Positions 2,612-51,207 of a stretch of DNA of 64,000 bases are shown here, piece after piece. A model generated the notes under the pieces. It had not been told where the DNA came from. It saw only the letters and a program-made list of their open reading frames with translations, and did no database searches. Position 1 is the stretch's first letter. The number at the start of each line of letters is the position of its first letter. Both the position numbers and the translations under genes were made by a program. The stretch comes from an uncultured Acidobacteriota bacterium (GTDB taxonomy: Bacteria; Acidobacteriota; Thermoanaerobaculia; Gp7-AA8): the NCBI GenBank assembly GCA_963734155.1, contig CAVTGG010000017.1, positions 131,705 to 195,704 of the forward strand. Direction: 5' to 3'.

Positions 2612-4330
2612 ATGATCGGTGTCATCCATGCGGTCGCGCTCGCGATTCTGGCGGTGCTCTGCCACGGCGGAGGATGCGCGGTCCTGGACGCGCTTCGCAT
2701 GCGGACATCCGGCGCCGCGGTCCGCGCGGTGCTGGCGTCGGGTCTCGGCTTCGGCATGCTCGGAATGATCCTGTTCGCCGCCGGAAGTGTGGGCGTGCTG
2801 ACCCGAGGGGTGGTGCTGCTGATCCTGGCGCTCTTTGTCCTCTGCGCGGCGCGCTACGCGCGCGAGCTCCGGCAGCTCCTGCTGCGCACGCCGCGCGGCA
2901 TTGTGCTCGTGCTGTTCGGTGGCTCGCTGCCGGCATTTCTGCGCGCGCTGTATCCGCCGACCGGCTTCGACGCCACGATGTACCACCTTCCGTTCGCGCG
3001 CCTCTTCGCGGAAACGGGCTCGATGGAGTTCGCCGGCGCGATCCGCTTTCCGGTGTTCCCGCAACTGGACGAAGTGATCTTCGCGGCGGCGCTGCTCGTT
3101 GCCGACGATCTGACGGCGCAGCTGACGCAGTGCTATTGCATGTTCGTGACCGCGGCCGCGGTCATCGCCCTGAGCCGTGACGGCGACCGTTCGCGCGGCG
3201 GATCGCTCGCCGCCGCGATCTGGCTCGGAGCTCCGCTGGTCTTTTTCCTCGGCAGCCAGGCGTACGTCGACGCCGGACTGACGATGGCCGTGACCCTGGC
3301 GTTCCTGGCGTGGATCGAATGGCGCGCGTCGGATCATCCTCCGGCGTTGGCGGCCGCGATCGGCGCGTTCGCCGGATTCGCCGCGGCGACGAAATATCTC
3401 GGTCTCTTTTTCGTCGCGTGGCTCGGCCTCTCCGTGCTCGCCGTTCGCTCAGGCACTCGCCTGCGAAGCGTCGCCGCGTTCGCCGCCGGGGTCCTGCTGA
3501 CGGCAGCGCCGTGGTACCTGCGCATCGCCGCATGGACCGGCAATCCGGTGTTCCCCTATTTCGAGAGCGTCTTCGGTGCGAATGACTGGGCATTGCACGC
3601 CGACGCGTCGCTTCACGCCGGATCGCTAACGCTCCCCGCGCGCAATCCGGATGAATGGGTCCTGTTCAACGGCTACAACCTGCGGCTCTGGATCCTTGCG
3701 CTGACTCCTCCGGCGCTCGCAGGCGTCTTCCTCGACCGCCGCCTGCGCCTGCCGTTCGCCGCCGCCGCTGCCTACGCGATCGTCCTCTGGCGATACGACA
3801 CCCGTTTCCTGGTCGCTTCCCTCCCGCTATTCGCACTCTGCGCCTCCGCGGCCGTCACTGCGATTCCGTGGTGCCGTCGGCGCGTGGTGATCGCCAGTGC
3901 GATTGCACTCGTGCTCGTCGCGGCATACGCCTTCCAGATCCGCTACGACCTGCGATATCTCGGACCCATCCCGCGGACCTCCGACGAGCGGGACGCGTTT
4001 CTCGATCGGAGGATCGCCGCGTATCCCGCGTTTCGCGCCATCGCCGGAGCCGGCGGCGCGGGAAAGACGATTTATGCCTTCCGCTGCGAAGACGCGGCGT
4101 ACTACTGGAACGGCCGCTATCTCGGCGATTGGTTCGGGCCGTATCGCTACGACAGCGTCGTGCCCTTTGCTGACCAGCCGGACCGCTTCCCGAGCATCCT
4201 GCGCCGCTTCGGCGCGGAATACCTCGTCGTCTGCAACGCCTACAGCGGACCGCCGCCGGCCGGCGTCGAGCTGTTATTCAGCAGCCCGATGGCGCGCGCG
4301 TACCGCATTCCGTCAGTGCACGAGCCGTAG
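2612..4330 (+). CDS. GT-C fold glycosyltransferase, family 39/PMT_2-like (ArnT/PMT-type) polytopic membrane protein
   Basis: About 11 predicted TM helices and a first-loop Dxx[FY] motif (PTGFDATMYHLP) comparable to the YDEAIF and WDWDEVLF motifs of the paralogs at 58766 and 49253. A C-terminal soluble domain follows. Confidence 0.65.
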   Translation: MIGVIHAVALAILAVLCHGGGCAVLDALRMRTSGAAVRAVLASGLGFGMLGMILFAAGSVGVLTRGVVLLILALFVLCAARYARELRQLLLRTPRGIVLVLFGGSLPAFLRALYPPTGFDATMYHLPFARLFAETGSMEFAGAIRFPVFPQLDEVIFAAALLVADDLTAQLTQCYCMFVTAAAVIALSRDGDRSRGGSLAAAIWLGAPLVFFLGSQAYVDAGLTMAVTLAFLAWIEWRASDHPPALAAAIGAFAGFAAATKYLGLFFVAWLGLSVLAVRSGTRLRSVAAFAAGVLLTAAPWYLRIAAWTGNPVFPYFESVFGANDWALHADASLHAGSLTLPARNPDEWVLFNGYNLRLWILALTPPALAGVFLDRRLRLPFAAAAAYAIVLWRYDTRFLVASLPLFALCASAAVTAIPWCRRRVVIASAIALVLVAAYAFQIRYDLRYLGPIPRTSDERDAFLDRRIAAYPAFRAIAGAGGAGKTIYAFRCEDAAYYWNGRYLGDWFGPYRYDSVVPFADQPDRFPSILRRFGAEYLVVCNAYSGPPPAGVELLFSSPMARAYRIPSVHEP

Positions 4331-6748
4331 CTGGCGCGAGGTCTTCTCCTCGAAGAACGCGCGCACGTCGAGCGCGGGCTTCCGCGAGACCAGCTCGCGC
4401 GGCGATGTTTCGTACCAGTCGCTCGGGAAGTAGCGCGTGTAGCTTTCCTGCGTGAAGCGCTTGCACAGCAGCGCGATCACGCCGATGTCGGTCTCGCTGC
4501 GGATCACGCGTCCGGCCGACTGCACGACGCGGGTCATGCCGGGAATCAGATACGCGAACTCGAAGCCTGCGCCGTACTGCTCGTCGTAATACTGCTTGAG
4601 CAGCTCCTGCTCGAAGCTCACCTGCGGCAGCGCCGGGCCGATGACCATCACTCCCGCGAGCATATCTCCCTGGTAGTCGACTCCCTCGGCGTACATGCCG
4701 CCGGACACCGCGAGGATCAGGTTTCCCTTCCGCGGCCGGTCGCGCAGGATGTCGAGGATCGCGTTGCGCTCGTAGTCGGTCATGTCGGTGCGCTGCACCA
4801 TGACGTTCTTGCGAATCGGCGGCATGCGCTCGGCGATCTCGCGCAGGAACGCGTAGCTCGGGAAGAGCGCGAGAAAGTTGCCGTCGGCGGCGTCGGCGAT
4901 GTCGGCGACGTTCAGCGCGATGTTGTCGTAGTGATCGGCGCGCCGCTTGTACGTCGTATCGACTTCCGAGACGATGACGATCTTGCGGTTGGCGCGCGGG
5001 AACGGGGAGGGGAGCGAAAGCTCGGCGGTGCGGTCTTCGGGAAAGCCGAGGGTCTTGCGATAGAAGTCGAACGGCTCGAGGGTCGCGGAGAGCGCGACCG
5101 TCGCGTGCGCGGAGTCGAAGATCTTGCCGAGGAAACGCGATGGGTCTTTGCAGAAGATCTTGAGCCTGATCCCGTCGTTCGTTTTCTCGACAAGGTGCGC
5201 GAACTCGTCGCCATCCTCGGCCAACAGATTCGTGAACTTCACGAGCTTGAAGTAGAAGTCGATCAGCGGGTCGTCTTCCTCGGCGATGCGGTTGTCGATC
5301 TTCCAGCCGATGTACGCCAGCACCAGCCGCTCCCACTCCGTCCGCTGCGCGAGGAACAGCTCGCGGCTCGGCTCGCAGATCGCCTGTTTGACGTCGTCTT
5401 CGAGCAACTGCGCCAGCTCGTGGAAGTGATCGCGCAACAGCTCGAGCAGCTCTTCCCATCCCTCGATCCAGCAGTTGCGCGTTATGAGGTGCTGCCTGAT
5501 GTCGTCGAACGACTTCTCGTGCAGGTCGGGCGAGTAGTAGCCGCGGCCGCGGTCGACGAGGTTGTGTGCTTCGTCGACGACGAGGACGCAGTCGCCATAG
5601 TCGTTCTCCTGCTGATACGCCTTCAGGCCGACGTACGGATCGAAGATGTAGTTGTAGTCGCAGACGACCACGTCCGCCTGCTCGATGAGCTCCAGCGAGA
5701 CTTCGAACGGACAGACTTCGTTGTCGCGCGCGAGCGCAAATGTGATGTCGGGATCGAAGTAGCTCATCGACGTCACGAGGTGCGAGAGCAGCCCGCTCTT
5801 CTCCATCTTGTCGGAGTAGCGCGCCGCGAACGGGCAGAAATCCTCGTGACAGATCATCTCCGTGTGCGCGCACATCTTCGATTTCGCGCGGATGCGCAGC
5901 ACGCGGAACGAGCCGTCGTTGAGCGCGCGCAGCGCGTTGATGGCCGCGTCCTGCTGCATCGTCTTCGACGTCAGCACGAACAGTTTCTTGCCGAGCTTCA
6001 GCGACTGCCGGAGCGCGGGATAGAGCACGGCCATGGTCTTGCCGATGCCGGTAGGCGCGGAGACGAGGAGCGAATCGCGCTGATACACCGCGCGCGCGAC
6101 GGCGGAGACGATCTCGTCCTGGCCGGGACGCATGGCGTCGAACGGAAACTGCAGCGTGTCGGCGAAGGCGCGCTTCGCGACGCGCAGCGCGGCCGCGGTC
6201 TCGAGTGAGTCGATCAGCTTCGCCAGCGACGCATCGAGCGTGTCGCGGACGCGGACCGGATCGAACTCGGTGTCGATGACCTTCGCCTCGCCGGAGACGA
6301 GATCGATGAGCACGAGCTGCGGCTCGAACAGGAATCCGTCGAGGTCGGGCTGGCTCGACAAAAAGTAGGCGTAGAGCAGCAGTTGATAGAGATGCCGCTG
6401 CAGCTTCTCGGATCGCATCAGCGATTCGAGCTCGAGGTCGAAGTGGATCGACTTCACTTCCTCGATGCTGACGCGCTTCGCGTCTTTGTCGACCGAGAGG
6501 CCGTCGATGCGCCCGGTGATCGTGACCGACCATCCGCCGAGGTTCGTGCGATGGACGACGTGGACCTCGGCGCGGTAACGCGGGTCTTCACTCGCGCGCT
6601 GTTCGGCGCGCTGCGTGTGGATGTCCTGCCCGATCCACATCCGGCGGAACCCGTCGCCGCGCTCCACGCCGATGCGGCGGTACGTCGACTCGTGCACGAG
6701 ATCGCCGACCGCGCAGACGATCTCCCTCTTTTCGTAGTCGACGCGCAC
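4313..6748 (-). CDS. dinG: DinG/XPD-family ATP-dependent DNA helicase with an N-terminal PD-(D/E)xK (RecB/Cas4-like) nuclease domain
   Basis: The N-terminus has ITGRIDGL (motif II), SIEEVKS (ExK) and QLLLYAYF (QxxxY). The helicase core has Walker A SAPTGIGKT, DEAH box VVDEAHNL, and an FeS-domain cysteine cluster CAHTEMICHEDFCPF...CPFE. Confidence 0.85.
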   Translation of the reverse strand: MRVDYEKREIVCAVGDLVHESTYRRIGVERGDGFRRMWIGQDIHTQRAEQRASEDPRYRAEVHVVHRTNLGGWSVTITGRIDGLSVDKDAKRVSIEEVKSIHFDLELESLMRSEKLQRHLYQLLLYAYFLSSQPDLDGFLFEPQLVLIDLVSGEAKVIDTEFDPVRVRDTLDASLAKLIDSLETAAALRVAKRAFADTLQFPFDAMRPGQDEIVSAVARAVYQRDSLLVSAPTGIGKTMAVLYPALRQSLKLGKKLFVLTSKTMQQDAAINALRALNDGSFRVLRIRAKSKMCAHTEMICHEDFCPFAARYSDKMEKSGLLSHLVTSMSYFDPDITFALARDNEVCPFEVSLELIEQADVVVCDYNYIFDPYVGLKAYQQENDYGDCVLVVDEAHNLVDRGRGYYSPDLHEKSFDDIRQHLITRNCWIEGWEELLELLRDHFHELAQLLEDDVKQAICEPSRELFLAQRTEWERLVLAYIGWKIDNRIAEEDDPLIDFYFKLVKFTNLLAEDGDEFAHLVEKTNDGIRLKIFCKDPSRFLGKIFDSAHATVALSATLEPFDFYRKTLGFPEDRTAELSLPSPFPRANRKIVIVSEVDTTYKRRADHYDNIALNVADIADAADGNFLALFPSYAFLREIAERMPPIRKNVMVQRTDMTDYERNAILDILRDRPRKGNLILAVSGGMYAEGVDYQGDMLAGVMVIGPALPQVSFEQELLKQYYDEQYGAGFEFAYLIPGMTRVVQSAGRVIRSETDIGVIALLCKRFTQESYTRYFPSDWYETSPRELVSRKPALDVRAFFEEKTSRQLRLVH

Positions 6749-11071: not shown

Positions 11072-11160
11072 GGCAGGAGAACGCAGAACGCAGAACGCAG
11101 AATGGAGAACGAAGAAATTTCTCAATTCTCCGTTCTGCGTTCTGCGCTCTGCGTTCTGTC
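11072..11160. repeat. Long GCAGAAC-heptamer palindrome in the divergent intergenic region
   Basis: gcaggagaacgcagaacgcagaacgcagaatggagaa ... ttctccgttctgcgttctgcgctctgcgttctg. The stem is about 35 bp. Confidence 0.7.
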
Positions 11161-12842: not shown

Positions 12843-14132
12843 GCGCCTACGGCGCCTTCTTCTCCCGCGACGCGCGCGCGTTCCGCCCGTCCGCCATCCG
12901 CGCATTCGCAAAGCTGATCAACGACCCGGGCGTGATCTCGTTCGCCGGCGGCTCGCCGAACCCCGAGACATTTCCCGCCGAGCGGATCGCCGCAATCGCG
13001 GAGCAGGTCGTGCGCGAGCGTCGCACGGTGGCGCTGCAGTACGGACCGACGCGCGGCTTGCCGCGGCTCTGTTCGTTCATCGCGGATTTGTGCAACGCGC
13101 GGTTCGGCGGCGAGACGCCGCCGGGCCAGCCGGCGGGGACGCCGGCGTTCCGAAGCAACGCCGGCGCAACGCCTCGGAACGCCGGCGTCTCGCCGGCTGG
13201 TCAGGCGGCGTCTCGCCGCCTCACTCCGGATGACGTGCTGACGACGACCGGCTCGCAGCAGGCGCTCGATCTCATCGCCCACACGCTGCTCGATCCCGGC
13301 GACGTCGTCGCCGTGGAGTTGCCGACGTACATCGGCGGCTCGTCGTCGTTCTTCGCGCGCAGCGCGGAGCTCGTCGGCGTGCAGCAGGACGACGAAGGAA
13401 TCGTCCCCGAGTCGCTGCGCGAAGTCGCGTCGCAAGCATCGCGTGAAGCTGCTCTACACGATCCCGAATTTTCAGAACCCGTCGGGACGCCTGATGACGC
13501 AGGCGCGCCGCGACGAAGTGCTCGCGATCGCCGAGGAGCGCGACTTTCTGATCATCGAAGACGACCCGTACGGCGAGCTGGTGTACGTCGACGGCGCCGA
13601 CACCACTCCGATGAAATCGCGCGATGTGCATGAGCGCGTTTTGTATCTCGGCTCCTTTTCCAAAGTGCTCGCGCCCGGCCTGCGCTGCGGCTGGATCGTC
13701 GCGGCGAAGCCGCTCCTCGAGCGGCTGGAGATCGCGAAGCAGGCCGCCGATCTCTGCTCCGGCATGCTCGATCAGTCGATCGTCGACGAGTTCTGCAGCA
13801 GCGGCGAGCTCGCGCCGCAGATCGAGCGCGTCCGCGCGTTCTATCGCGGCAAGCGCGGCACGCTCATCGACGCGCTGCAGCAGCACTTCGCCGGCCGCGC
13901 CGAATGGACATCCGCCGATGGCGGCCTCTTCACCTTCGTCACGCTGCACGACGACATCGACACCGCGGCGCGCGTGCCAGATGCGGTCGCGCGCGGCGTC
14001 GCGTACATTCCGGGCGGGCCGTTCTTCGTCGATGGAAGCGGGCGCAACACGATGCGGCTCACGTTTGCGAAGGAATCTGACGAACGGATGCGAGAAGGCG
14101 TGGCGCGGTTGGCGGGCGTGTTCTATTCTTAG
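12839..14132 (+). CDS. PLP-dependent aminotransferase class I/II (2-aminoadipate/aromatic aminotransferase-like). It carries an in-frame palindromic element insertion and an apparent frameshift near 13431-13440
   Basis: N-terminal FFSRDARAFRPSAIRAF...GGSPNPETFP, then TGSQQALDL, KLLYTIPNFQNPSG and SFSKVLAPGLRCGWI. The N-terminal half is in frame 2 and the C-terminal half in frame 0. No canonical start codon was found near 12839. Confidence 0.7.
13108..13220. mobile_element. Palindromic MITE/RPE-like element (family 1), inserted in-frame into the aminotransferase CDS
   Basis: Near-perfect palindrome cggaacgccggcgtctcgccggctggtcaggcggcgtctcgcc with its inverse. It adds about 36 aa (ETPPGQPAGTPAFRSNAGATPRNAGVSPAGQAASRR) between the conserved ARFGG and LTPDDVLTTTGSQQAL. 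A second copy lies at 20026-20125. Confidence 0.75.
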
Positions 14133-14842: not shown

Positions 14843-16224
14843 TGCTCGCCGCGCTTCTCGTTCTCCTCGCGCTCACCATCCGCTGCCGCGAGGCCGGCGG
14901 CGCCGCGCAGGATCCGCTCGACAAGGAAGCGGAAGAAGCGTTCGTCGCGTATCTGCGGATCGACACGTCGAATCCGCCGGGAAACGAGACGAACGGCGCG
15001 ACATATCCTGCGCGATCTGTTCGTGAAGAACGGCATCGCCGCGCAGCTCGTCGGCGATGATCCGAAGCGGCAGGGCGTGTACGCGCGGCTCGTGTCGGGC
15101 TCGAAAGAACCGGCGCTCCTGCTGCTCAGTCACATCGACGTCGTGCCGGCCGATCCGAGCGTCTGGACGCAGCCGCCGTTCAGCGGCGCGCGCTCGGGCG
15201 GCTACATCTGGGGACGCGGTGCGCTCGATACGAAATGCCTCACGATCGGCGAGCTGATGGCGATGCTCGAGTTGAAGCGCCGCAACGCATCGCTGCGGCG
15301 CGACATCGTCTTTCTCGCGACGCCGGATGAAGAGCTCGCGGGCATCAACGGAACGAAGAAGCTGCTCGACCAGCATCCGCAGCTGTTCGAGAACGTCGGC
15401 TTCGTGCTGAACGAAGGCGGCACGAACGAGACCGCGGTCGACAAGGTGCTGTTCTGGGGCATCGAGGTGCAGCAGAAAGTGCCGCTGTGGGTGCGCATCA
15501 CGACCGAAGGGAACCGGCGGGCATGGCGCGATCCCGCCGGATGATGGCGGCGCGACGGCGAAGCTCGTGCGCGCGCTCGATGCCGTGCGCGCGATCGAGA
15601 CGCCGTACCGCCTCGAAGCGAGCGTCGCCCGCGCCGCGGCGGCGGGGGCGGCGGTGCGCACCGACGCGCGCCGCGAACGGCTGCGCCTCTTCCGCGAGCC
15701 GCTCGACGTCGAGCGCATCCAGCGCGACGTCCCCGCCGGAAGCCGCTCGCTGCTGCACGACACGATCGCCATCACGCACATCGCCGCCGGCTCGTCGGTG
15801 AACATGATTCCCTCGCGCGCGATCGGCGACGTCGACATCCGCCTGTTTGCCCGATACGAAACCCGAGGCCATGCTCGCGCGCGTCCGCGAAGCGGTGGGA
15901 AAGAACGGCACGATCGAAGTGCTCGCCGCCGGCGAGCCGGTCGCCGAAAGCTCCGCGAAGACCGAGCTCTTCGACGTGATCGCGCACGCGATGCGCGCGC
16001 ACGCTCCCGGCTCCGCCGTCGCTCCCGTCGTCGGTCCCGGCACCACCGACAGCCGTTACTTTCGCGCGAGAGGAATCACCGCGTACGGGATCATGCCGTT
16101 CAAGGTGAACTACTACGACGCCGACAGCGTGCATGGAGTCGACGAGCGGATCCGCACGCGTTTCTTCGCCGAGGGAGTGCGTCTCACGCGGAACATCGTG
16201 CGCGATTTTTGCGAAGCGAAATGA
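14839..16224 (+). CDS. M20/M25/M40 family metallopeptidase, secreted, with three apparent frameshifts (near 14990, 15508 and 15845)
   Basis: Signal-like NLLAALLVLLALT, IDTSNPPGNE, LLSHIDVVPA, GRGALDTKC and GGHGAIPP, with a C-terminus ...GIMPFKVNYYDADSVHGVDERI. The domains are spread over three frames. No ATG was found at the 5' end. Confidence 0.6.
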
Positions 16225-16669: not shown

Positions 16670-18899
16670 CCCCGTCGCTCGCTGTTCCGCAACGCCCCGA
16701 GCTTCACCAGGCCCTCATCGAGCTCCTCCGCCAGCGCGGGAATCGCGTTCTCGCCGTGAAGGAGATTCACGAGCGGCTCGCGGACCACGACGTCACGCGT
16801 GAAGAAGTCGCCACCGCGGCCGAAGAGTTGGAGAACGACGGCGTCATCATCGCCGTGCGCGGCAAGCGCTACTCGCTGCTCGAGTTCACGCCGTACGTCA
16901 CGGGGCGCATTCGTGTGCATCCGGACGGGCACGGCACGTTGCCCGGGCCACCGCCCGCGGGCAGCGGGCAGCGGGCAGCGGGCGGCGATGAAGGCATTTA
17001 TGTCGATCGGCGCGCGATGAAAGGCGCGATGAACGGCGACCTCGTCGTCGTCCGCATCGACAAGCGCCGTCCCGAATACAAGAAGGTGCGCGACCGCCGC
17101 TACATCGCCGGCGAGGTCTCGCAGGTGCTGCGCCGCGCGAACCGCACCGTCGTCGGGCGCTTTCACAAAGAGCCCGAGCCGTTCGTCGTGCCGTTCGACG
17201 TCCGCCTCGACACCGACATCCTCATCGAGCACGGCGCGACGCTCGAGGCGCGCGACGGCGAGATGGTGAACGTCGAGCTCGATCGCTATCCCGATCGCTC
17301 CACGCATTTCGCGAGCGGCCGCGTCGTCGAGACGCTCGGCTTCATCGGCGAGCCCGGCGTCGACATCGAAGTCGTCATCCGCAAGCATCACATCGCGCAC
17401 AATTTTCCCGACGAGGTTCTCGCCGCGGCGGACGCGATCCCGCTCGAAGTTCCCGAGGACGAGATCGCGAAGCGCGTCGATCTCCGCGACCGCAACATCG
17501 TCACGATCGACGGCGAGACGGCGAAGGATTTCGACGACGCCGTCGAAGTGCAGAATCTTCCGAACGGCAACCTGCTTCTCGGCGTGCACATCGCCGACGT
17601 CTCGCATTACGTCACCGAGGGCAGCGCGCTCGATCGCGAAGCCTTCGAGCGCGGCACGTCGGTCTATTTTCCCGGCCGCGCGATCGCGATGCTGCCGGAG
17701 CGCCTCTCGAACGTCATCTGCTCGCTGAACCCGCAGATCGAGCGGCTCACGTTCTCGTGCGAGATCGAGATCGACCGCCGCGGGCGCTTCGTCCATCACA
17801 AGATCTACAAGTCGGTGATCAAGACCAAAGAGCGGATGACGTACACGAACGTCAACGCGATCCTCACCGAGCATCACACCGGAACTGCAGCGAGCGCTAC
17901 GGCTACCTGCTTCCCGATTTCCAGCGGATGCTCGAGCTGTACGAGATTCTCCGCGCGCGCCGCGATCAGCGCGGCTCGATCGACTTCGACCTACCCGAGG
18001 CCGAAGTGATGCTCGACAAGGCCGGCGACATCGAGGCCATCCGTCCCTCGGAGCGCAACGTCGCGCATCGCATCATCGAAGAGTTCATGCTTTCCGCGAA
18101 CGAAGTCGTCGCGCGCGAGCTCGTGTTCGCGGCGCAGCCGGGCCTCTATCGCGTGCACCAGCAGCCCGATCCGCAGAAGCTCGCCGATCTGAAAGAGATC
18201 CTCAAGGAATTCAAGCTCACGCTGCGCGGCGATCTCGAAGACATCCGCCCCGCGGAGCTGCAGCGCGTGTTGAAGTCCGTCGCCGGAACGCCGGAGGATC
18301 GCTTCCTCACGAACATCGTCCTCCGCTCGATGAAGCGCGCGTTCTATTCGGAAGAGAACACCGGACACTTCGCGCTCGGGCTCGAGCACTACTGCCACTT
18401 CACGTCGCCGATTCGCCGCTATCCCGATCTGATCGTGCACCGAAGATTGTTGGAGCTGATCTCGACCGGCGCGTTGTACGGCGAGCGGCGCGATGACATC
18501 GAGCGCGCGCATCCGCTGTACGCGCAGCAGTCGAGCGATCGCGAGCGCCGCGCCGAGGAGGCGGAGCGCGAGGTGCTGGAGTGGAAGAAAGTCATCTTCA
18601 TGCGCGACAAAGTCGGCAACGAATACAGCGGCATCGTCACCGGCGTCGCGCCGTTCGGCCTCTTCGTCGAGCTGGATGAAATCTTCGTGCAGGGCATGGT
18701 GCCGGTGGCGACGATCGGCGGCGATTTCTGGCGCTATCACGACCGTTCGCATCGGATGATCGGCGAGTCGTCTTCGCGCGAGCTGCGCCTCGGCGATCAC
18801 GTGAAGGTGCGCGTGGAGTCGATCGATGAGGACCGGCATCAGCTCGAGTTCCGACTGCTGGAAGTCGGCGGCGCGGCGATCAAAGAGCGCGAACGCTAA
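16666..18899 (+). CDS. rnr: Ribonuclease R, with two single-base insertions near 17878 and 17889 that split the ORF
   Basis: RNB domain motifs FTIDGETAKDFDDAV and GHFALGLEHYCHFTSPIRRYPDLIVHR, and a C-terminal S1 domain. Removing one base at each of two positions yields the consensus ILTEHHPELRERYGYLLPDF. Confidence 0.85.
16945..16990. repeat. GGGCAGC heptamer repeat inside the rnr coding region (in-frame low-complexity insert GSGQRAAGG)
   Basis: ccaccgcccgc gggcagc gggcagc gggcagc gggcggcg. Confidence 0.55.
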
Positions 18900-20016: not shown

Positions 20017-20025
20017 AACCCCTCG

Positions 20026-20125
20026 GAACGCCGCCGTCCCCGGCGGCTGGTCCGGCGGCGTCCCGCCGCCGCGTGGCGCCGAGACGGCGCCTGACCAGCC
20101 GGCGAGACGCCGGCGTTCCGATGCT
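20026..20125. mobile_element. Palindromic MITE/RPE-like element (family 1), intergenic copy
   Basis: cggaacgccgccgtccccggcggctggtc ... gaccagccggcgagacgccggcgttccga. It is the reverse-orientation near-identical match of 13108-13220. Confidence 0.75.
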
Positions 20126-20130
20126 TAACG

Positions 20131-20547
20131 ATGATGATTGAAGACTTCGAACGACAGGTAATCGCCGGCCTGCTGGCGGGCGACCATCCGCTGCTGGCGG
20201 CGCTGCGCGCGCAGCACGCCGCGGCCTCCGTGCGCGACCGCGAAGTCAACACGCGCGGCTTCGTCACGCGCTTCGATGTGCCGGCGTCGGCGAGTGCGAT
20301 CGATCGCAAGCTCCTGCACCTCGATGACCTGCAGATCGAGCTCGACGGCGTGAAAACGCCCGTCGACGCTTCGTTGCACGTCCTCAACGGGCGGATCAAA
20401 TCGCTCGAGTGTTTCGTCTACGACGGCGCGTTTCCGGAATCGCCGTCGATCAAAGCGGCGTGGTACTACGGGACGAAAAAGTATCCCGGCATCACGCGGG
20501 AGCTGATGGCGGAGCGGGACTTCGAAGAGCTGCTGGAAGAGGATTGA
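20131..20547 (+). CDS. Hypothetical cytoplasmic protein
   Basis: High-GC3 ORF MMIEDFERQVIAGLL...KYPGITRELMAERDFEELLEED with no recognisable domain. Confidence 0.5.
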   Translation: MMIEDFERQVIAGLLAGDHPLLAALRAQHAAASVRDREVNTRGFVTRFDVPASASAIDRKLLHLDDLQIELDGVKTPVDASLHVLNGRIKSLECFVYDGAFPESPSIKAAWYYGTKKYPGITRELMAERDFEELLEED

Positions 20548-20554
20548 GTGTCTC

Positions 20555-20690
20555 TCGTCGTTGCCCTTCTCCCCGCTTGCGGGGAGAAGGTGGCCGAAGG
20601 CCGGATGAGGGGTCGCTCCTCGCGCCATGCGCCGCCCCTCACGCGGCGCTGCGCGCCACCCTCTCCCCGCTTGCGGGGAGAGGGCAACGC
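20555..20690. mobile_element. Palindromic MITE-like element (family 2, CTCCCCGCTTGCGGGGAGA core) between convergent genes
   Basis: Two modules: cttctccccgcttgcggggagaaggtggccgaaggccggatgagggg and its imperfect inverse cccctcacgcggcgctgcgcgccaccctctccccgcttgcggggagaggg. A second copy lies at 49705-49824. Confidence 0.75.
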
Positions 20691-20692
20691 GG

Positions 20693-21724
20693 TTAGCGCG
20701 CGGCGGGCGCAACGACCGTGTCGTTGTAGCGATCCCACGGCGAGAGCACCCAGATCTCGGGACGCTTCTCGCCTTTCCTGATGTCCAGCTCGAACGGCTG
20801 GCCCGCCTCGCCCATGTCGCGAAGGCCGAGCATCACCCGCGCGTCGACCGGCTTGCCGCTCGCCGGATCCTTCGCCGTCACGGTGACGGTGTGCTTGCCG
20901 GGCTTCAACGAGTCGACGGACGGCGTGATCGTCACGTCCATCGGGCGAATGTCGATCGGCATGCGGAACTTGATCGTCTCGTAGCCTTCGCGCGCGACCG
21001 TGACCATCGGAGCGGCCAGCTCGTCGTGGCCGTTCGCGGCCTTCACGCGCGTCAGCTTCGCCTTCCACGGCAGCGCGTACGACGACGTCGGCGTGCCGTC
21101 CGGAACGTCTTTCGCGTAGAGGATCTCGTCGCCGACGGTGATCGATGCTTTCACCGGGATGTGCGTTTCTTTGTCGAGCGCGTAGATGACGAGCTTTCCG
21201 TCGAAGTCGGGCGGAATGCTCTTCGGCGTCACCGTGAGGTCGAACTGCCGCAGCCCCTGCGACGCCTGCGGCTTCGCGGCGATGCACGCCTTCGCCTCGT
21301 CCCACGCCTTCCACGAGTTGAGATCGATGCCGCTGACGTACGTGCGCATCATCAGAAAGCACTGCTCGTAGTCGCTCTTCTCTTTGAACTGATCGCAGAT
21401 CGCCATCGACTGCGTGAGCACGACGTCATTGCAGAACATGTTCGTGTTGCCCGGCGTCGCGTAGCAGGCGGCGAGCTTCGCGCAGTACGGCTTGAGCTCT
21501 CCGAGCAGCTGGTCCCAGTGCGCCTCGATCCACTGCTCGCTCATGTGCGTGTACGACTGCATGCGCGCGCCGGCCATGCCCAGCTCAGTGCGCTTCCACG
21601 ACGCGCAAAGGCTGCCGATTTCGCAATCGGTGCGTTTGTAATCGTCCGGGAAAATCTGCGGCGTGGCGGCCTGCAGCGACGTGGCGAGGACGAGGAGTAA
21701 GAGTACGGAGAGCTTTTTGAGCAT
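20693..21724 (-). CDS. Hypothetical secreted Cys-rich protein
   Basis: Signal peptide MLKKLSVLLLLVLATSLQA, about 10 Cys in the N-terminal half and a beta-rich C-terminal half. Confidence 0.7.
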   Translation of the reverse strand: MLKKLSVLLLLVLATSLQAATPQIFPDDYKRTDCEIGSLCASWKRTELGMAGARMQSYTHMSEQWIEAHWDQLLGELKPYCAKLAACYATPGNTNMFCNDVVLTQSMAICDQFKEKSDYEQCFLMMRTYVSGIDLNSWKAWDEAKACIAAKPQASQGLRQFDLTVTPKSIPPDFDGKLVIYALDKETHIPVKASITVGDEILYAKDVPDGTPTSSYALPWKAKLTRVKAANGHDELAAPMVTVAREGYETIKFRMPIDIRPMDVTITPSVDSLKPGKHTVTVTAKDPASGKPVDARVMLGLRDMGEAGQPFELDIRKGEKRPEIWVLSPWDRYNDTVVAPAAR

Positions 21725-38504: not shown

Positions 38505-38590
38505 ACGTGCCCGTGCCCGCGCCCGTGCCCGAGCCCGGGGTGGGGGAACGAACCACCCACCCCGGGCACGGGCGCGGGCACGGGCACGGG
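38505..38590. repeat. Heptamer-unit palindrome (GCCCGTG units) downstream of the DUF1684 gene
   Basis: cgtgcccgtgcccgcgcccgtgcccgagcccggggtggg gaacgaacca cccaccccgggcacgggcgcgggcacgggcacg. The stem is about 38 bp. Confidence 0.75.
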
Positions 38591-45294: not shown

Positions 45295-47107
45295 ATGCCG
45301 GATCCAAAAACGCTCAACGATATCTATGAGCTAACCTCGTCAGTCGATCGCCCTGCGATCATGAAGTACAAGAAGGGCGACCGGTGGATCGACGTCACGG
45401 TTCCCGAGTTCCGCGACACGGTTCGCTGGTTTTCCACGGGCCTGTACGAGCTCGGCGTGAAGCCGGGCGATCGCGTCGGCATCCTCTCCGAGAATCGTCC
45501 CGAGTGGACGATCGCCGACTTCGCGACGCTCTGCGCGTCCGCCGTCAGCGTGCCGGTCTATCCGACGCTCCTCGGCTGGCAGATCGAGTACATCCTCAAC
45601 GACGCCGGCACGGTCGCCGTCGTCTGCTCGACAAAAGAGCAGCTCGACAAAGTGCTGGAGATCCGCTCGCACGTTCCCGCGCTGCAGAACGTGATCGTCT
45701 GCGATCTTCCCGAGCCGGTCGAGGGCGTCCTCACATTCGCCGACGTCGTCGCGCGCGGCCGCGCGTTCGAACAGAAAAACGGGCGCGGCTGGTTCGATCA
45801 GTCGCGCGCCTCGCGCACGCCCGACGATCTGGCCACGCTCGTCTACACCTCCGGCACTACCGGCAATCCGAAGGGCGCGATGCTCACGCACGGCAACATC
45901 ACGACGAACGTCGTCTCCGTGCGCGAAGCCGTGCCGTTCCAGATCGGCGACGTCGCGCTGTCGATCCTCCCGCTCTCGCACATCCTCGAGCGCATGGTCG
46001 ACTACCTCTATCTCTACAAGAACGGCACGATCGCGTACGCGGAGAACGTCAACAAAGTCGCCGACAACCTGCAGGAGATCCGCCCGCAGTACTTCGGCGC
46101 GGTGCCGCGTCTCTTCGAAAAGATGCGCATGCGGATCATGGACAACGTCGCCACCGCGCCGCCCGCGCGCCAGAAGATCTTTCACTGGGCGCTGAAAGTG
46201 GGCGAGGAGCGGCTGCCGTATCGCATCGAAGGCAAGCCGCTGCCGCTCGGCCTCAAACTGAAATCCGCGATCGCCGACAAGCTCGTCTTCAGCAAGATCA
46301 TCGCGCGCCTCGGCGGCAACGTGAAGTACGTCGTCTCCGGCGGCGCACCGCTGTCGCAGGAGCTCGCCGCGTTCTTCATCGGTGCGGGCGTGGAGATCCT
46401 CGAAGGCTACGGCCTCACCGAAACCTCGCCCGTCATCTCGGTGAATCGTCCCGACAAGCGCCGCCTCGGCACGGTCGGTCCGGTCATCGACGGCGTGGAA
46501 GTGAAGATCGCCGAGGACGGTGAGATCCTCTCGCGCGGCCCGCACATCATGAAGGGCTACTGGAACAACCCCGAGGCCACGGCGCAGGCGATCGATCAAG
46601 GATGGATGGTTCCACACCGGCGACATCGGCGAGCTCGACAAGGATGGATTCCTCAAGATCACCGACCGCAAGAAAGACATCATCATCAACGCGTACGGAA
46701 AGAACATCGCGCCGCAGCCGCTCGAAGCGCTGCTCAAGAGCTCCCCGTACGTCGGCACGCCGGTGCTCATCGGCGACCGCCGCAAGTTCCTCACCGCGCT
46801 CATCGTGCCGAACTTCGAGAAGCTCGAGCGTGACGCGGCCGCGGCGGGCATCGAGGTGAAATCGTACGAAGAGCTCGTGGGTCACGACGGCGTGAAGAAG
46901 ATGATCCAGGGCGAGATCGATCGCTTCAATCAGAACCTCGACCGGCAGGAGAAGATCCGCCGCTTCGCGCTCCTGCCGCGCGACTTCACCATCGAAGAAG
47001 ACGAGATCACGCCGTCGCTCAAAGTGAAGCGCAAAGTCATCGACAAGAAATACAAACACATCATCGACCAGCTCTACGCCAACGACAATCTCGTGGAAAC
47101 CACATGA
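45295..47107 (+). CDS. fadD: Long-chain fatty acid-CoA ligase (AMP-dependent synthetase/ligase), with a single-base insertion near 46598-46601
   Basis: LVYTSGTTGNPKGAML AMP motif. The conserved DGWFHTGDIGELDKDGFLKITDRKKD and the C-terminal domain are in the +1 frame. Confidence 0.85.
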
Positions 47108-49252: not shown

Positions 49253-51207
49253 GTGGCTTCAGCTCCCGACCTTTTGACGCCGCGGCAGCGCGCGATCGTC
49301 GCGATCGCTGCGCTCGTCTGCGCCGCTTCGCGCTTCCTCGCGCTCGCGCGCTCCGTCTGGGACTGGGACGAAGTGCTCTTCACGCTGGCGATGCGCGACT
49401 ACAACGTCGCGCTGCACCACCCGCATCCGCCCGGTTTCCCGGCGTACATCTTCCTCGGCCATATCGCGCGCTTCGTCACCGACAGCGACTTTCACGCGCT
49501 GCGGCTCGTCAATCTCATCGCGGCGATGCTCGTCTTCCCGGCGATCTTCTTCCTCGCCCGCGAGCTGCGGCTGCGCTTCGAAACCTCGCTCATCGCCGCG
49601 CTGCTCTTCGCATTTTTCCCGAACGTCTGGTTCTTCGGCGGCGGCGCGTTCAGCGACATCCCGTCGATCGTGCTGGTCTGCTTCGCCGCGGGATTGCTGT
49701 TTCGCAGCCCCTCACCCGGCGCTTCGCGCCACCCTCTCCCCGCAGGCGGGGAGAGGGGCGACGACAGCGTCCGCGTCGCGCTTCTCCCCGCTTGCGGAAA
49801 GGTGGCCGAAGGCCGGATGAGGGGCGTTACGCCTACTGGCTCGGAGCGTTGCTGCTCGCGATCGCGATCGGCATCCGTCCGCAAAACCTGCTCGTCGGAC
49901 TCTTTCCCGCGATTTACGCCACACGCAAACGGCGTCCGCTGGAGATCGTCGTCGCGCTGCTGATCGGCATCGCCGTCGTCGGCATCTGCTTCGGCGGCGC
50001 GATTCAGGCCACCGGCTCGCTGCCCGAATACATGCGCGTCGTGCGCGAGCATGGCGACTACATCTCGCGCGTCGACTCGTTCCACAGCCCCGACCGCCCC
50101 GCGCTCTGGCGCCTCTTCGATCGCTTCTTCATCAAGCAATACCAGTCGCCGGTGCTGAGCGCGATCGCGTCGCTGCTCGTGCTCGTGTCGGCGATCGGCG
50201 CGGTTCGCGACCGCGACCGGTCGATGCTCTACAACGTCCTGACCTTCGCGCCGTTCGCGATCTCCGCCTGGCTGATGCTCGACCGCTTCAGCATCAGCCG
50301 CTTCTCCATCGGATATCAGCCGATGTTCGCGATCCTCGCCGCCGATGGCATCCGCCGCCTCGGACGTTTCCGTCCGTGGCTCGAGCCCGTCTTCGCGTCG
50401 GCGCTCGTCGTCGCCTTCATCGCCTACACCGCGCCGGATTTGAACGTCGTCCGCACGACGGTCGCTCCCTCGGTGCTGGCGACGCAGGCGCTGTTGCGAA
50501 CGGTCGATCCGAAGCGCGACGAGCTGTACGTCGGCCACACGATGTCGAAGTTCGTCGACCTCGTCGCGCCGGGCTTGCCCTATCGCCGCGTCATCGACGA
50601 TCGCGCGCTGCCGCTCGCGCCGAACCCGCGCGCGTGGCTGCTCGCGGAAGTGACGGAGACGAAGCCGGAGGGATTGATGTTCACGCGCGAGCGCGGGCAT
50701 CTCTGGAACATCGCCCGCCGCCACTACTTCGAAATCGTGCTCAAGCCGCTGCGCACCCGCGCGCAGTTCCTCGCCGGCTGGTACGCCCCCGAGGCCCAGG
50801 ACATTCATGAATGGCGCTGGATGGTCGGCCGCTCGGTCACGATCCTGCCGCCGCAGAACGGCCCGGCGATCCTGCGCATGCACCTCGGCATTCCCGGCGA
50901 GTTGATGGACAAGAATCCGGAGATCACCGTGAAAATCAACGGCCGCATCGTCGACCGCTTCCGGACCTCCGAGGGATATCTCGAGCGCAACGTCCACGTC
51001 ATGCCCGCGCCGAACGGCGCGCCGAACACGCTCGAGCTCTCGATCGATCACACCCTCAGCCCGCCGCCCGCCAGGCCACCGGTCGGAAGCTCGGCCGCGG
51101 CTCGCAATTTGGCGTGGGGGCGGCATAGTGGAGGACAGGCTCGCTGTCTGTCCTTCTCTGGACAGCAGGATGTCTGTCCTCCACTTGGGTATTCTTTGAG
51201 CCTATGA
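49253..51207 (+). CDS. GT-C glycosyltransferase family 39/PMT_2-like membrane protein, interrupted by a family-2 palindromic element
   Basis: WDWDEVLFTLAMRDY and HHPHPPGFP motifs. The N-terminal part is in frame 2, and the C-terminal part (from ...YAYWLGALLLAIAIGIRPQ) is in frame 1 after the element. Confidence 0.65.
49705..49824. mobile_element. Palindromic MITE-like element (family 2), inserted inside the GT39 CDS
   Basis: cccctcacccggcgcttcgcgccaccctctccccgcaggcggggagagggg ... cttctccccgcttgcggaaaggtggccgaaggccggatgagggg. Same two modules as 20555-20690, in swapped order. Confidence 0.75.

Follow-up and report, generated by a model that had tools for sequence, protein, structure and literature searches.

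What kind of palindrome lies at two places in a 64,000-nt stretch of an uncultured Acidobacteriota genome (contig CAVTGG010000017.1; hereafter the window), and what has it done to the glycosyltransferase gene that it enters? The original prediction had described a family of miniature inverted-repeat transposable elements (MITEs). After refinement, the palindromes span positions 20559-20689 (locus 1) and 49708-49824 (locus 2). We consider it very probable that locus 2 is a head-to-head and locus 1 a tail-to-tail dimer of one module of the repetitive extragenic palindromic (REP) type, that this module belongs to the family of the canonical REP sequences of Sinorhizobium meliloti and Deinococcus radiodurans, and that it was gained in the lineage of the window and spread as hairpin DNA mobilized in trans.

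Four places in the window carry the core CTCCCCGCTTGCGGGGAGA (20568-20587, 20662-20681, 49735-49754 and 49784-49802). With up to three mismatches allowed and both strands of the palindrome counted, it gave seven matches, compared to a mean of 0.03 after shuffling (none of 100 shuffles reached seven). Alignment of the four copies revealed a repeat unit of about 47 nt, and a profile made from all four of them found exactly four full module copies in the window and no other match (20565-20611 and 49781-49823 on the plus strand, 20636-20684 and 49709-49757 on the minus strand; E values from 9e-14 to 6e-11). The module starts with an invariant head hairpin of 10-12 bp, CCYTCTCCCCGC-NN-GCGGGGAGARGG, and continues with a GGTG linker that, as written here, overlaps the end of the head. 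It is followed by a second hairpin, variable in sequence and length with its pairing kept and usually with a C-GNA-G or C-GNNA-G loop, and by a conserved tail, CGGRTGAGGGG. Two subtypes can be distinguished: alpha (...AAGGTGGCCGAAGGCCGGATGAGGGG) is on the plus strand in both of its window copies, and beta (...GAGGGTGGCGCG[A/C]AGCGCCG[G/C]GTGAGGG) is on the minus strand in both of its copies. Each dimer is a heterodimer of one alpha and one beta module, in the order alpha, 22-nt spacer, beta with tails inward at locus 1, and beta, spacer of about 22-28 nt, alpha with heads inward at locus 2. Both the existence of a repeated palindromic family, here four modules in two inverted pairs, and the opposite module order at the two loci had been recognized in the original prediction.

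At locus 1, the alpha module (20559-20612, plus strand, E = 9e-14, RNA fold of -27.9 kcal/mol) consists of an outer CGTTGC that extends the palindrome, the head CCTTCTCCCCGC-TT-GCGGGGAGAAGG, the second hairpin GGCC-GAA-GGCC and the tail CGGATGAGGGG. The spacer (20613-20634) is followed by the beta module with its outer GCAACG (20635-20689, minus strand, E = 1.2e-12, RNA fold of -34.2 kcal/mol, z = -4.2). At locus 2, the beta module (49708-49757, minus strand; profile match at 49709-49757, E = 3.3e-13) reads on the plus strand as tail' CCCCTCACCCG, second hairpin GGCGC-TTC-GCGCC and head CCCTCTCCCCGC-AG-GCGGGGAGAGGG; as RNA, it folds into two hairpins and a free tail (-32.8 kcal/mol, z = -3.5). 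The spacer between the heads, GCGACGACAGCGTCCGCGTCGC (49758-49779), falls into the head-to-head class of about 28-31 nt when measured from core to core. The alpha module delimited by the module alignment (49780-49824, plus strand, profile E = 6.2e-11) has a defective head, with GCGGAAAGG in place of the GCGGGGAGAAGG of the other alpha copy and thus 3 nt shorter. Its second hairpin (GGCC-GAA-GGCC) and tail (CGGATGAGGGG) are intact, and its fold is no better than that of shuffled sequences (z = +0.5). Three of the four single modules fold as two hairpins plus tail (z from -3.0 to -4.2), and as single-stranded DNA both dimers reach -52.6 to -62.1 kcal/mol (z from -6.8 to -9.6 compared to shuffles).

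Comparison with relatives showed that neither dimer is an old resident. As had been predicted, one copy lies between convergent genes and one inside a GT-C-type gene. Locus 1 is placed between the stop codons of the convergent open reading frames (ORFs) 20131-20547 (plus strand) and 20693-21724 (minus strand), and the whole gap of 145 nt between the stops (20548-20692) is missing from relatives. In all six relatives' loci (L119/L120/L121 and L157-L159; 80% to at least 90% amino acid identity) the site is empty and the two genes overlap by 4 nt, as judged from the gene tables of all six, an alignment with L119/L120/L121 and a BLAST break in L157. The closest named homologs of the flanking genes are from Thermoanaerobaculia or Acidobacteriota metagenome-assembled genomes (MAGs). 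Locus 2 lies inside the gene for a membrane protein of about 590 amino acids, a GT-C-like glycosyltransferase, in a short basic loop (R-GARDRN-AYW in the orthologs). None of the 15 aligned full-length orthologs contains the element; all carry ...LL[FL]R-GARDRN-AYWLG... or a close variant instead, and we therefore rejected the idea that it is native coding sequence. The syntenic loci L001 and L002 match the window at about 93% DNA identity up to 49705/49708 and again from 49829/49831, with 15-16 nt between these points compared to 122-123 nt in the window. The empty site reads CGC-GGY-GCN-NNC-RAT-CGC, so that 119 nt stand in place of about 12 nt, a net gain of 107 nt. A target-site duplication was not found at locus 2 by comparison with the empty site, and locus 1 offers no more than an ambiguous TTA/TTG. 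The module was absent from all of the relatives' loci examined (L001, L002, L119-L121 and L156-L159). Since both sites are empty in relatives, both dimers are gains in the lineage of the window; we conclude that they are recent, lineage-specific insertions.

Outside this lineage, the module is widespread, and further copies were found in many other genomes. Neither of the two refutations named in the original prediction thus held, as copies exist elsewhere and the orthologs lack the sequence. A search of contigs from one genome per species with 27 nt of head and linker, the tail not being part of the pattern, returned at least 116 matching stretches, most of those listed being from Rhizobiales. 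Among the matches listed were also Lysobacterales/Xanthomonadales, Solimonas, Terriglobia, Thermoanaerobaculia, other Acidobacteriota and, judging by its title, one Myxococcota MAG. Although outside the search pattern, the tail is conserved in almost all of the matches listed. Several Alphaproteobacteria (e.g., L014, L048, L072 and L101) have a module identical to the window alpha module outside the 2-nt loop, and a Lysobacterales MAG (L117) differs by one further base. Additionally, 318 plasmid or replicon records contain the module, and S. meliloti replicons carry 12-40 copies each of the whole 48-nt module, at 94-96% identity to that of the window. A crude classification of gene context by G+C content at third codon positions (GC3), too rough to be quantified, places most copies between genes. 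GenBank phages are essentially without the module. The pattern is present in 34 IMG/VR contigs, mostly with identifiers like those of isolate genomes and possibly prophage calls, in which phage DNA could not be told from host flank. One predicted (pro)viral contig, IMGVR_UViG_2643221934_000004 (L124), holds five same-strand copies of head and linker within about 700 nt (4052-4769).

The variable part of the module is constrained as well. The second hairpins, 65 of them distinct and 7-54 nt long, are paired at 86% of positions, compared to 70 +/- 2% with shuffled partners. In a gap-free alignment of 12 sequences, four pairs changed on both sides (covariation score 0.171 compared to 0.044; none of 500 shuffles reached this score). 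Pairing and covariation together indicate that the structure is kept by compensatory change. The longer stems often contain a tandem G-A mismatch. The dimer forms recur from taxon to taxon: among the 44 tail-to-tail spacers in loci from many taxa (0.93 Mb), 39 measure 22-36 nt, and the modules of a head-to-head pair either have one head in common or are separated by a spacer of about 28-31, 55-57 or 70-75 nt. Both window dimers fall into the commonest spacer classes, and the length class of locus 2 recurs in L005, L016, L033, L040, L077, L091, L094 and L099 with unrelated spacer sequences.

The identity of the family emerged from a comparison with published repeats. Additional file 15 of Tobes and Pareja (2006) lists, as canonical REP sequences, ACCTTCTCCCCGCAAGCGGGGCGAAGG for S. 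meliloti and GGGAGAGGGCCTTGCGAAGCAAGGGGTGAGGG for D. radiodurans (PMC1525189). The window alpha head, CCTTCTCCCCGC-TT-GCGGGGAGAAGG, differs from the S. meliloti sequence only in the loop and in one stem base. The published S. meliloti repeat comprises the 27-nt head only, whereas our description adds the second hairpin and the tail as well as the dimer forms, in an acidobacterial host and with one dimer inside a gene. The supplementary alignments of the same paper contain ISRm22 and ISRm19 copies flanked by fragments of the S. meliloti repeat, once with adjoining tail' and second hairpin (PMC1525189). Three parts of the module return in the D. radiodurans sequence: the head's 3' arm (GGGAGAGGG), a hairpin whose loop is GAA, and the tail (GGTGAGGG). 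A D. radiodurans copy (L161) between the convergent uvrA and P450 genes reads CCCTCTACCC-TTGC-GGGAGAGGG-ccttgcGAAgcaagg-GGTGAGGGGG, with CCCTCTACCC as the 5' arm of the head; in contrast to the window module, its head is shorter and imperfect and the stem of its second hairpin has a different sequence. The REP of D. radiodurans is one of its mosaic small noncoding repeats (SNRs); these number 295 in D. radiodurans and are missing from D. geothermalis (PMC1978522), a patchy distribution that resembles the patchiness of the module here.

In its general construction, the module matches the repeats of the Escherichia coli type, known as REPs, bacterial interspersed mosaic elements (BIMEs) and, for REP doublets, REPINs. 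Like these, it is a short GC-rich palindrome that forms both dimer types, often as heterodimers, with typical spacers. Repeats of the E. coli type are found predominantly at gene 3' ends, and their doublets fold into long hairpins (PMC3733652). Di Nocera et al. (2013) described head-to-head and tail-to-tail REP dimers with a prevalence of heterodimers, as well as families to which no transposase is linked and families that are untagged; the tag in question is a conserved GTAG or CGTC that REPs carry at one palindrome end (PMC3733652). The module contains no GTAG tag at the palindrome end, and a CGTC found 1-5 nt outside three of the four window heads is not conserved in other taxa. Since neither tag is conserved, we count the module family as untagged. 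It differs from the E. coli type in having two hairpins and a conserved single-stranded tail, and in being nearly identical across phyla.

Several other named repeats were compared. The intergenic mosaic elements specific to Rhizobium (RIMEs) are likewise mosaic intergenic palindromes of rhizobia and are annotated in S. meliloti beside palindromes called 'MOTIF' A, B and C. We rejected an identity with RIMEs based on the chvI-chvG (exoS) intergenic region of S. meliloti (434 nt; L160, 3053-3486), whose two-component system is named in the title of the RIME-defining paper: its palindromes are richer in AT and lack the CTCCCCGC core. The module may correspond to one of the 'MOTIF' A/B/C palindromes. 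Br-REP1/2 of Bradyrhizobium was rejected as well, since neither the paper on it nor the supplements contain a matching sequence. A tail-to-tail spacer in L064 (about 3470-3500) contains CGAGATTCCGG, half of the Br-REP1 palindrome CCGGAATCTCGAGATTCCGG (PMC5082802), and the spacers of some other loci of the Bradyrhizobiaceae type are loosely similar to it; the 'flanking palindromes' of Br-REP1 may correspond to the module. In Rfam 15, neither the window nor eight related loci gave a match at the gathering score, and a permissive search yielded far sub-threshold matches to long-hairpin microRNA precursor models only. The core sequence was not found in the main texts of the literature searched, where the one match was a Klebsiella CRISPR paper. 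The kind of element is well known, and the fuller description of the module and its dimers, as well as its spread across phyla, goes beyond the literature searched. We conclude that the window holds an acidobacterial member of a REP family listed before only as short consensus sequences of S. meliloti and D. radiodurans.

How would such dimers spread? We propose that they move as hairpin-forming noncoding DNA mobilized in trans, possibly, by analogy with REPINs, by an enzyme that acts on single-stranded hairpins. As a by-product, the dimers could function as strong stem-loops, either in DNA or in transcripts. Some observations weigh against this reading. No mobilizing enzyme was found, in an analysis that did not search the window ORFs for transposases. 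In four other loci, the stretches between clusters of modules contain housekeeping genes only, with no transposase among them. The module lacks the GTAG tag of E. coli-type REPs mobilized by REP-associated tyrosine transposases (RAYTs). The 64 kb available from this genome contain four modules only, too few to show a high copy number there. Further, the insertion at locus 2 was not clean, with about 12 nt of the loop lost, and homology with the Deinococcus repeat is inferred from a shared layout and 17 identical flanking bases.

The original interpretation as a classical MITE, i.e., an insertion sequence reduced by deletion that has terminal inverted repeats, is moved by a DDE transposase and leaves target-site duplications, would suit the size of 117-131 nt, the folding of the whole element, an inverted repeat, into one long hairpin, and the fact that both copies are presence/absence polymorphisms. 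At the empty sites, however, a duplication was lacking at locus 2, where about 12 nt are lost, and no more than the ambiguous TTA/TTG was seen at locus 1. Moreover, the ends of the two copies differ, with heads pointing outward at one locus and tails at the other, and the actual unit is the module of about 47 nt, arranged tail-to-tail, head-to-head or around one shared head, as in the dimer forms of REPs and BIMEs. A parent insertion sequence was not seen in the loci at hand. Based on the missing target-site duplication and the different ends, we do not regard the element as a classical MITE, an origin that appears quite improbable. Still less can be said for the suggested invertible or foldback structure, in which a single switch would exist in two states, one for each module order. 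The opposite order at the two loci is what this idea would explain, but the orders correspond to two standard, separate and stable dimer types, each of which recurs in dozens of unrelated genomes with its own spacer-length classes. The spacers of the two loci are unrelated, and neither a recombinase gene nor flanking crossover sites were noted; we regard such a switch as extremely unlikely.

A different view would be that the element is primarily a structured RNA, such as a 3'-end stabilizer, an attenuator or another cis-acting motif, which is selected at the RNA level and is not selfish DNA. The covariation of the second hairpin, the frequent tandem G-A mismatches in its longer versions and the location of locus 1 and of the Deinococcus copy between convergent genes all fit with such a role, and intergenic repeats of S. 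meliloti were reported to be transcribed (PMC3738161). On the other hand, no Rfam family matches, and the hairpins are not followed by a run of T as in intrinsic terminators. The loops of the C-GNA-G type are no less characteristic of stable DNA mini-hairpins, which counts against a selected RNA. The modules stand in both orientations as symmetric pairs, here even within a coding region, and selection on RNA would leave the new insertions unexplained. We therefore consider a primarily RNA-based element unlikely, though somewhat less so than a MITE, and maintain the interpretation as REP dimers. Specifically, an intrinsic terminator was rejected, since no terminator-like site is present at the element.

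Whether the dimer at locus 2 has broken its host gene is a separate question. The host protein matches two Pfam models weakly (DIE2_ALG10, 28.3 bits with a cut-off of 27; PMT_2, 17.1 bits with a cut-off of 26.1), and some of its orthologs are named 'glycosyltransferase family 39 protein' by NCBI. A comparison with uninterrupted GT39 paralogs at 2612 and 58766 had been suggested; both of these turned out to be weak, sub-threshold PMT_2 matches, and BLASTP detected no similarity between the protein at 2612 and that of the interrupted gene (E = 1.7), so that this comparison is uninformative. The described reading of the protein itself was confirmed. The N-terminal part (49253-49705, plus strand, 151 codons, frame 2; 92% identical to residues 1-136 of the L001 ortholog) runs up to ...AAGLLFR, and the C-terminal part (49828-51207, plus strand) resumes 122 nt later at YAYWLG in a different frame. 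As the net insert of 107 nt is no multiple of three, the frame is broken as assembled. However, both flanking reading frames are open across the element, five of whose six frames lack stop codons, and one suitable indel would therefore give a single ORF.

The quality of the contig bears directly on this point. As the original prediction had noted, breaks of the indel type occur elsewhere: among 14 other genes compared with close relatives, four are frame-broken, with six switches in about 22 kb. These are the genes for an RNase R-like protein (one switch, about 17871-17892), an M20 peptidase (three, at 15848, 15508 and 15005), a predicted aminotransferase (one, about 13407-13486) and an AMP-dependent ligase (one, at 46596). 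Where resolved, the breaks are one-base insertions in the window, and apart from them the proteins share about 90-97% identity with their relatives, save for the region beside the aminotransferase break. A further 1-nt gap was seen at a gene junction (14759). These breaks look like assembly error, and the contig looks error-prone; its apparent pseudogenes are therefore not to be trusted.

On the window branch of the glycosyltransferase, dN/dS (nonsynonymous to synonymous substitution rates) was 0.17 (dN 0.0146, dS 0.0866), compared to 0.14 and 0.20 on the branches of two intact orthologs, which shows no relaxed selection. Palindromes inside intact genes were also found in relatives. The ortholog P0055 (L156) carries another palindrome, of about 105 nt and in frame, in the same loop as the window insert; a different palindromic insert sits, likewise in frame, in another loop of P0002, and P0007 has extra residues at that loop. 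Such in-frame palindromic insertions seem to be common in this lineage. The L156 palindrome (1960-2060) reads GGCGCGCCGGC...GCCGGCGCGCC, and in the intact glycosyltransferase ortholog of L001 a GGCGGGCTTCAGCCCGCC / GGTGGGCTAAAGCCCACC pair is located at 4978-5060. A similar pair lies in the intact RNase R-like gene of L157 (11688-11752), and the RNase R-like gene of the window contains a partly palindromic in-frame insertion of 36 nt (12 codons), CGCCCGCTGCCCGCTGCCCGCTGCCCGCGGGCGGTG, at 16949-16984, which is absent from L157. The dN/dS values, the open frames and the in-frame palindromes of the orthologs together indicate that the host gene was functional until recently or still is.

A true disruption would mean that the insertion shifted the frame and left a young pseudogene or a split gene. 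It would agree with the net gain of 107 nt, with the source annotation, which contains a 452-amino acid C-terminal product only, and with the 3' end of the gene, where at least three further frame switches are needed to follow the orthologs over about the last 25 codons (51056-51130, about 75 nt) and the conserved stop codon (...LAWGPA*) is out of frame. This cluster of switches would be odd under random assembly error and under neutral decay alike. Additionally, a single-base insertion as in the other breaks would not restore the frame here, and at the background error rate, the probability that the 122 nt contain an error would be only about 3%, unless palindromes are error-prone. That they may be so in this assembly is hinted at by the 3-nt deficit in one head, which suggests local miscalling inside the palindrome. 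The breaks in the other four genes, the RNase R-like, aminotransferase and M20 peptidase genes among them, likewise speak against a true disruption, as do the dN/dS value, similar to that of intact orthologs, and the tolerance of orthologs for palindromic inserts in frame. In the alternative case of an assembly indel, the real insert would lengthen a tolerant loop by about 35-37 codons in frame. No independent assembly with this insertion was found: a junction pattern had no match and a spacer pattern a single chance match. With arguments on both sides and no such assembly, we rate a genuine break and an assembly indel as about equally probable.

Other palindromes are present in the window. 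A further family at 13105-13229 and 20023-20124, with units such as GGCGGCGAGACGCCGCCGGGCCAGCCGGCGGGGACGCCGGCGTTCCGA, has arms that are 88-93% complementary, both between the two loci and within the first; it is probably the family that the original prediction had counted as the first, and its copy at 20023-20124 is only about 430 nt away from the tail-to-tail dimer. Positions 11078-11157 form a near-perfect 80-nt palindrome of heptamer repeats of the AGAACGC type, to which purine-rich repeats at 1950-1981 and 2510-2541 are related. An inverted repeat at 38510-38590 has 35-nt arms of CCCGTGCCCG-type units (91% complementary) and an 11-nt loop.

For annotation, it follows that the element is to be masked or labeled as a REP-type repeat, that spurious peptides encoded by it (e.g., ...SPRLRGEGGRRPDEG...) are not to be called genes, and that the split glycosyltransferase does not warrant a pseudogene call without read support. 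Its position within coding sequence, in a loop flanked by conserved segments, resembles that of the Rickettsia palindromic elements (RPEs) and of other repeats in protein-coding genes (reviewed in PMC3184786). Unlike in RPEs, the reading frame is not preserved here as assembled, and the sequences are unrelated.

More broadly, one noncoding two-hairpin REP module appears to be shared, nearly base for base, by Alpha- and Gammaproteobacteria, Acidobacteriota and, by the title of a single MAG, Myxococcota, with a variant in Deinococcus and a patchy occurrence among close relatives. To our knowledge, classical REP families are restricted to one species or genus. As a tentative explanation, which we hold to be possible and on balance doubtful, the module might have been transferred repeatedly between phyla together with a mobilizing enzyme, or might be recognized by a factor conserved across phyla; in Thermoanaerobaculia, this and other palindromes may also be tolerated, in the manner of RPEs, as in-frame insertions into loops of membrane glycosyltransferases. 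The two pairs of filled and empty sites reveal a repeat family that was recently active in an uncultured acidobacterial lineage. What moves or maintains a near-invariant noncoding module of 47 nt over such distances is a question that can be tested in the genetically tractable S. meliloti.

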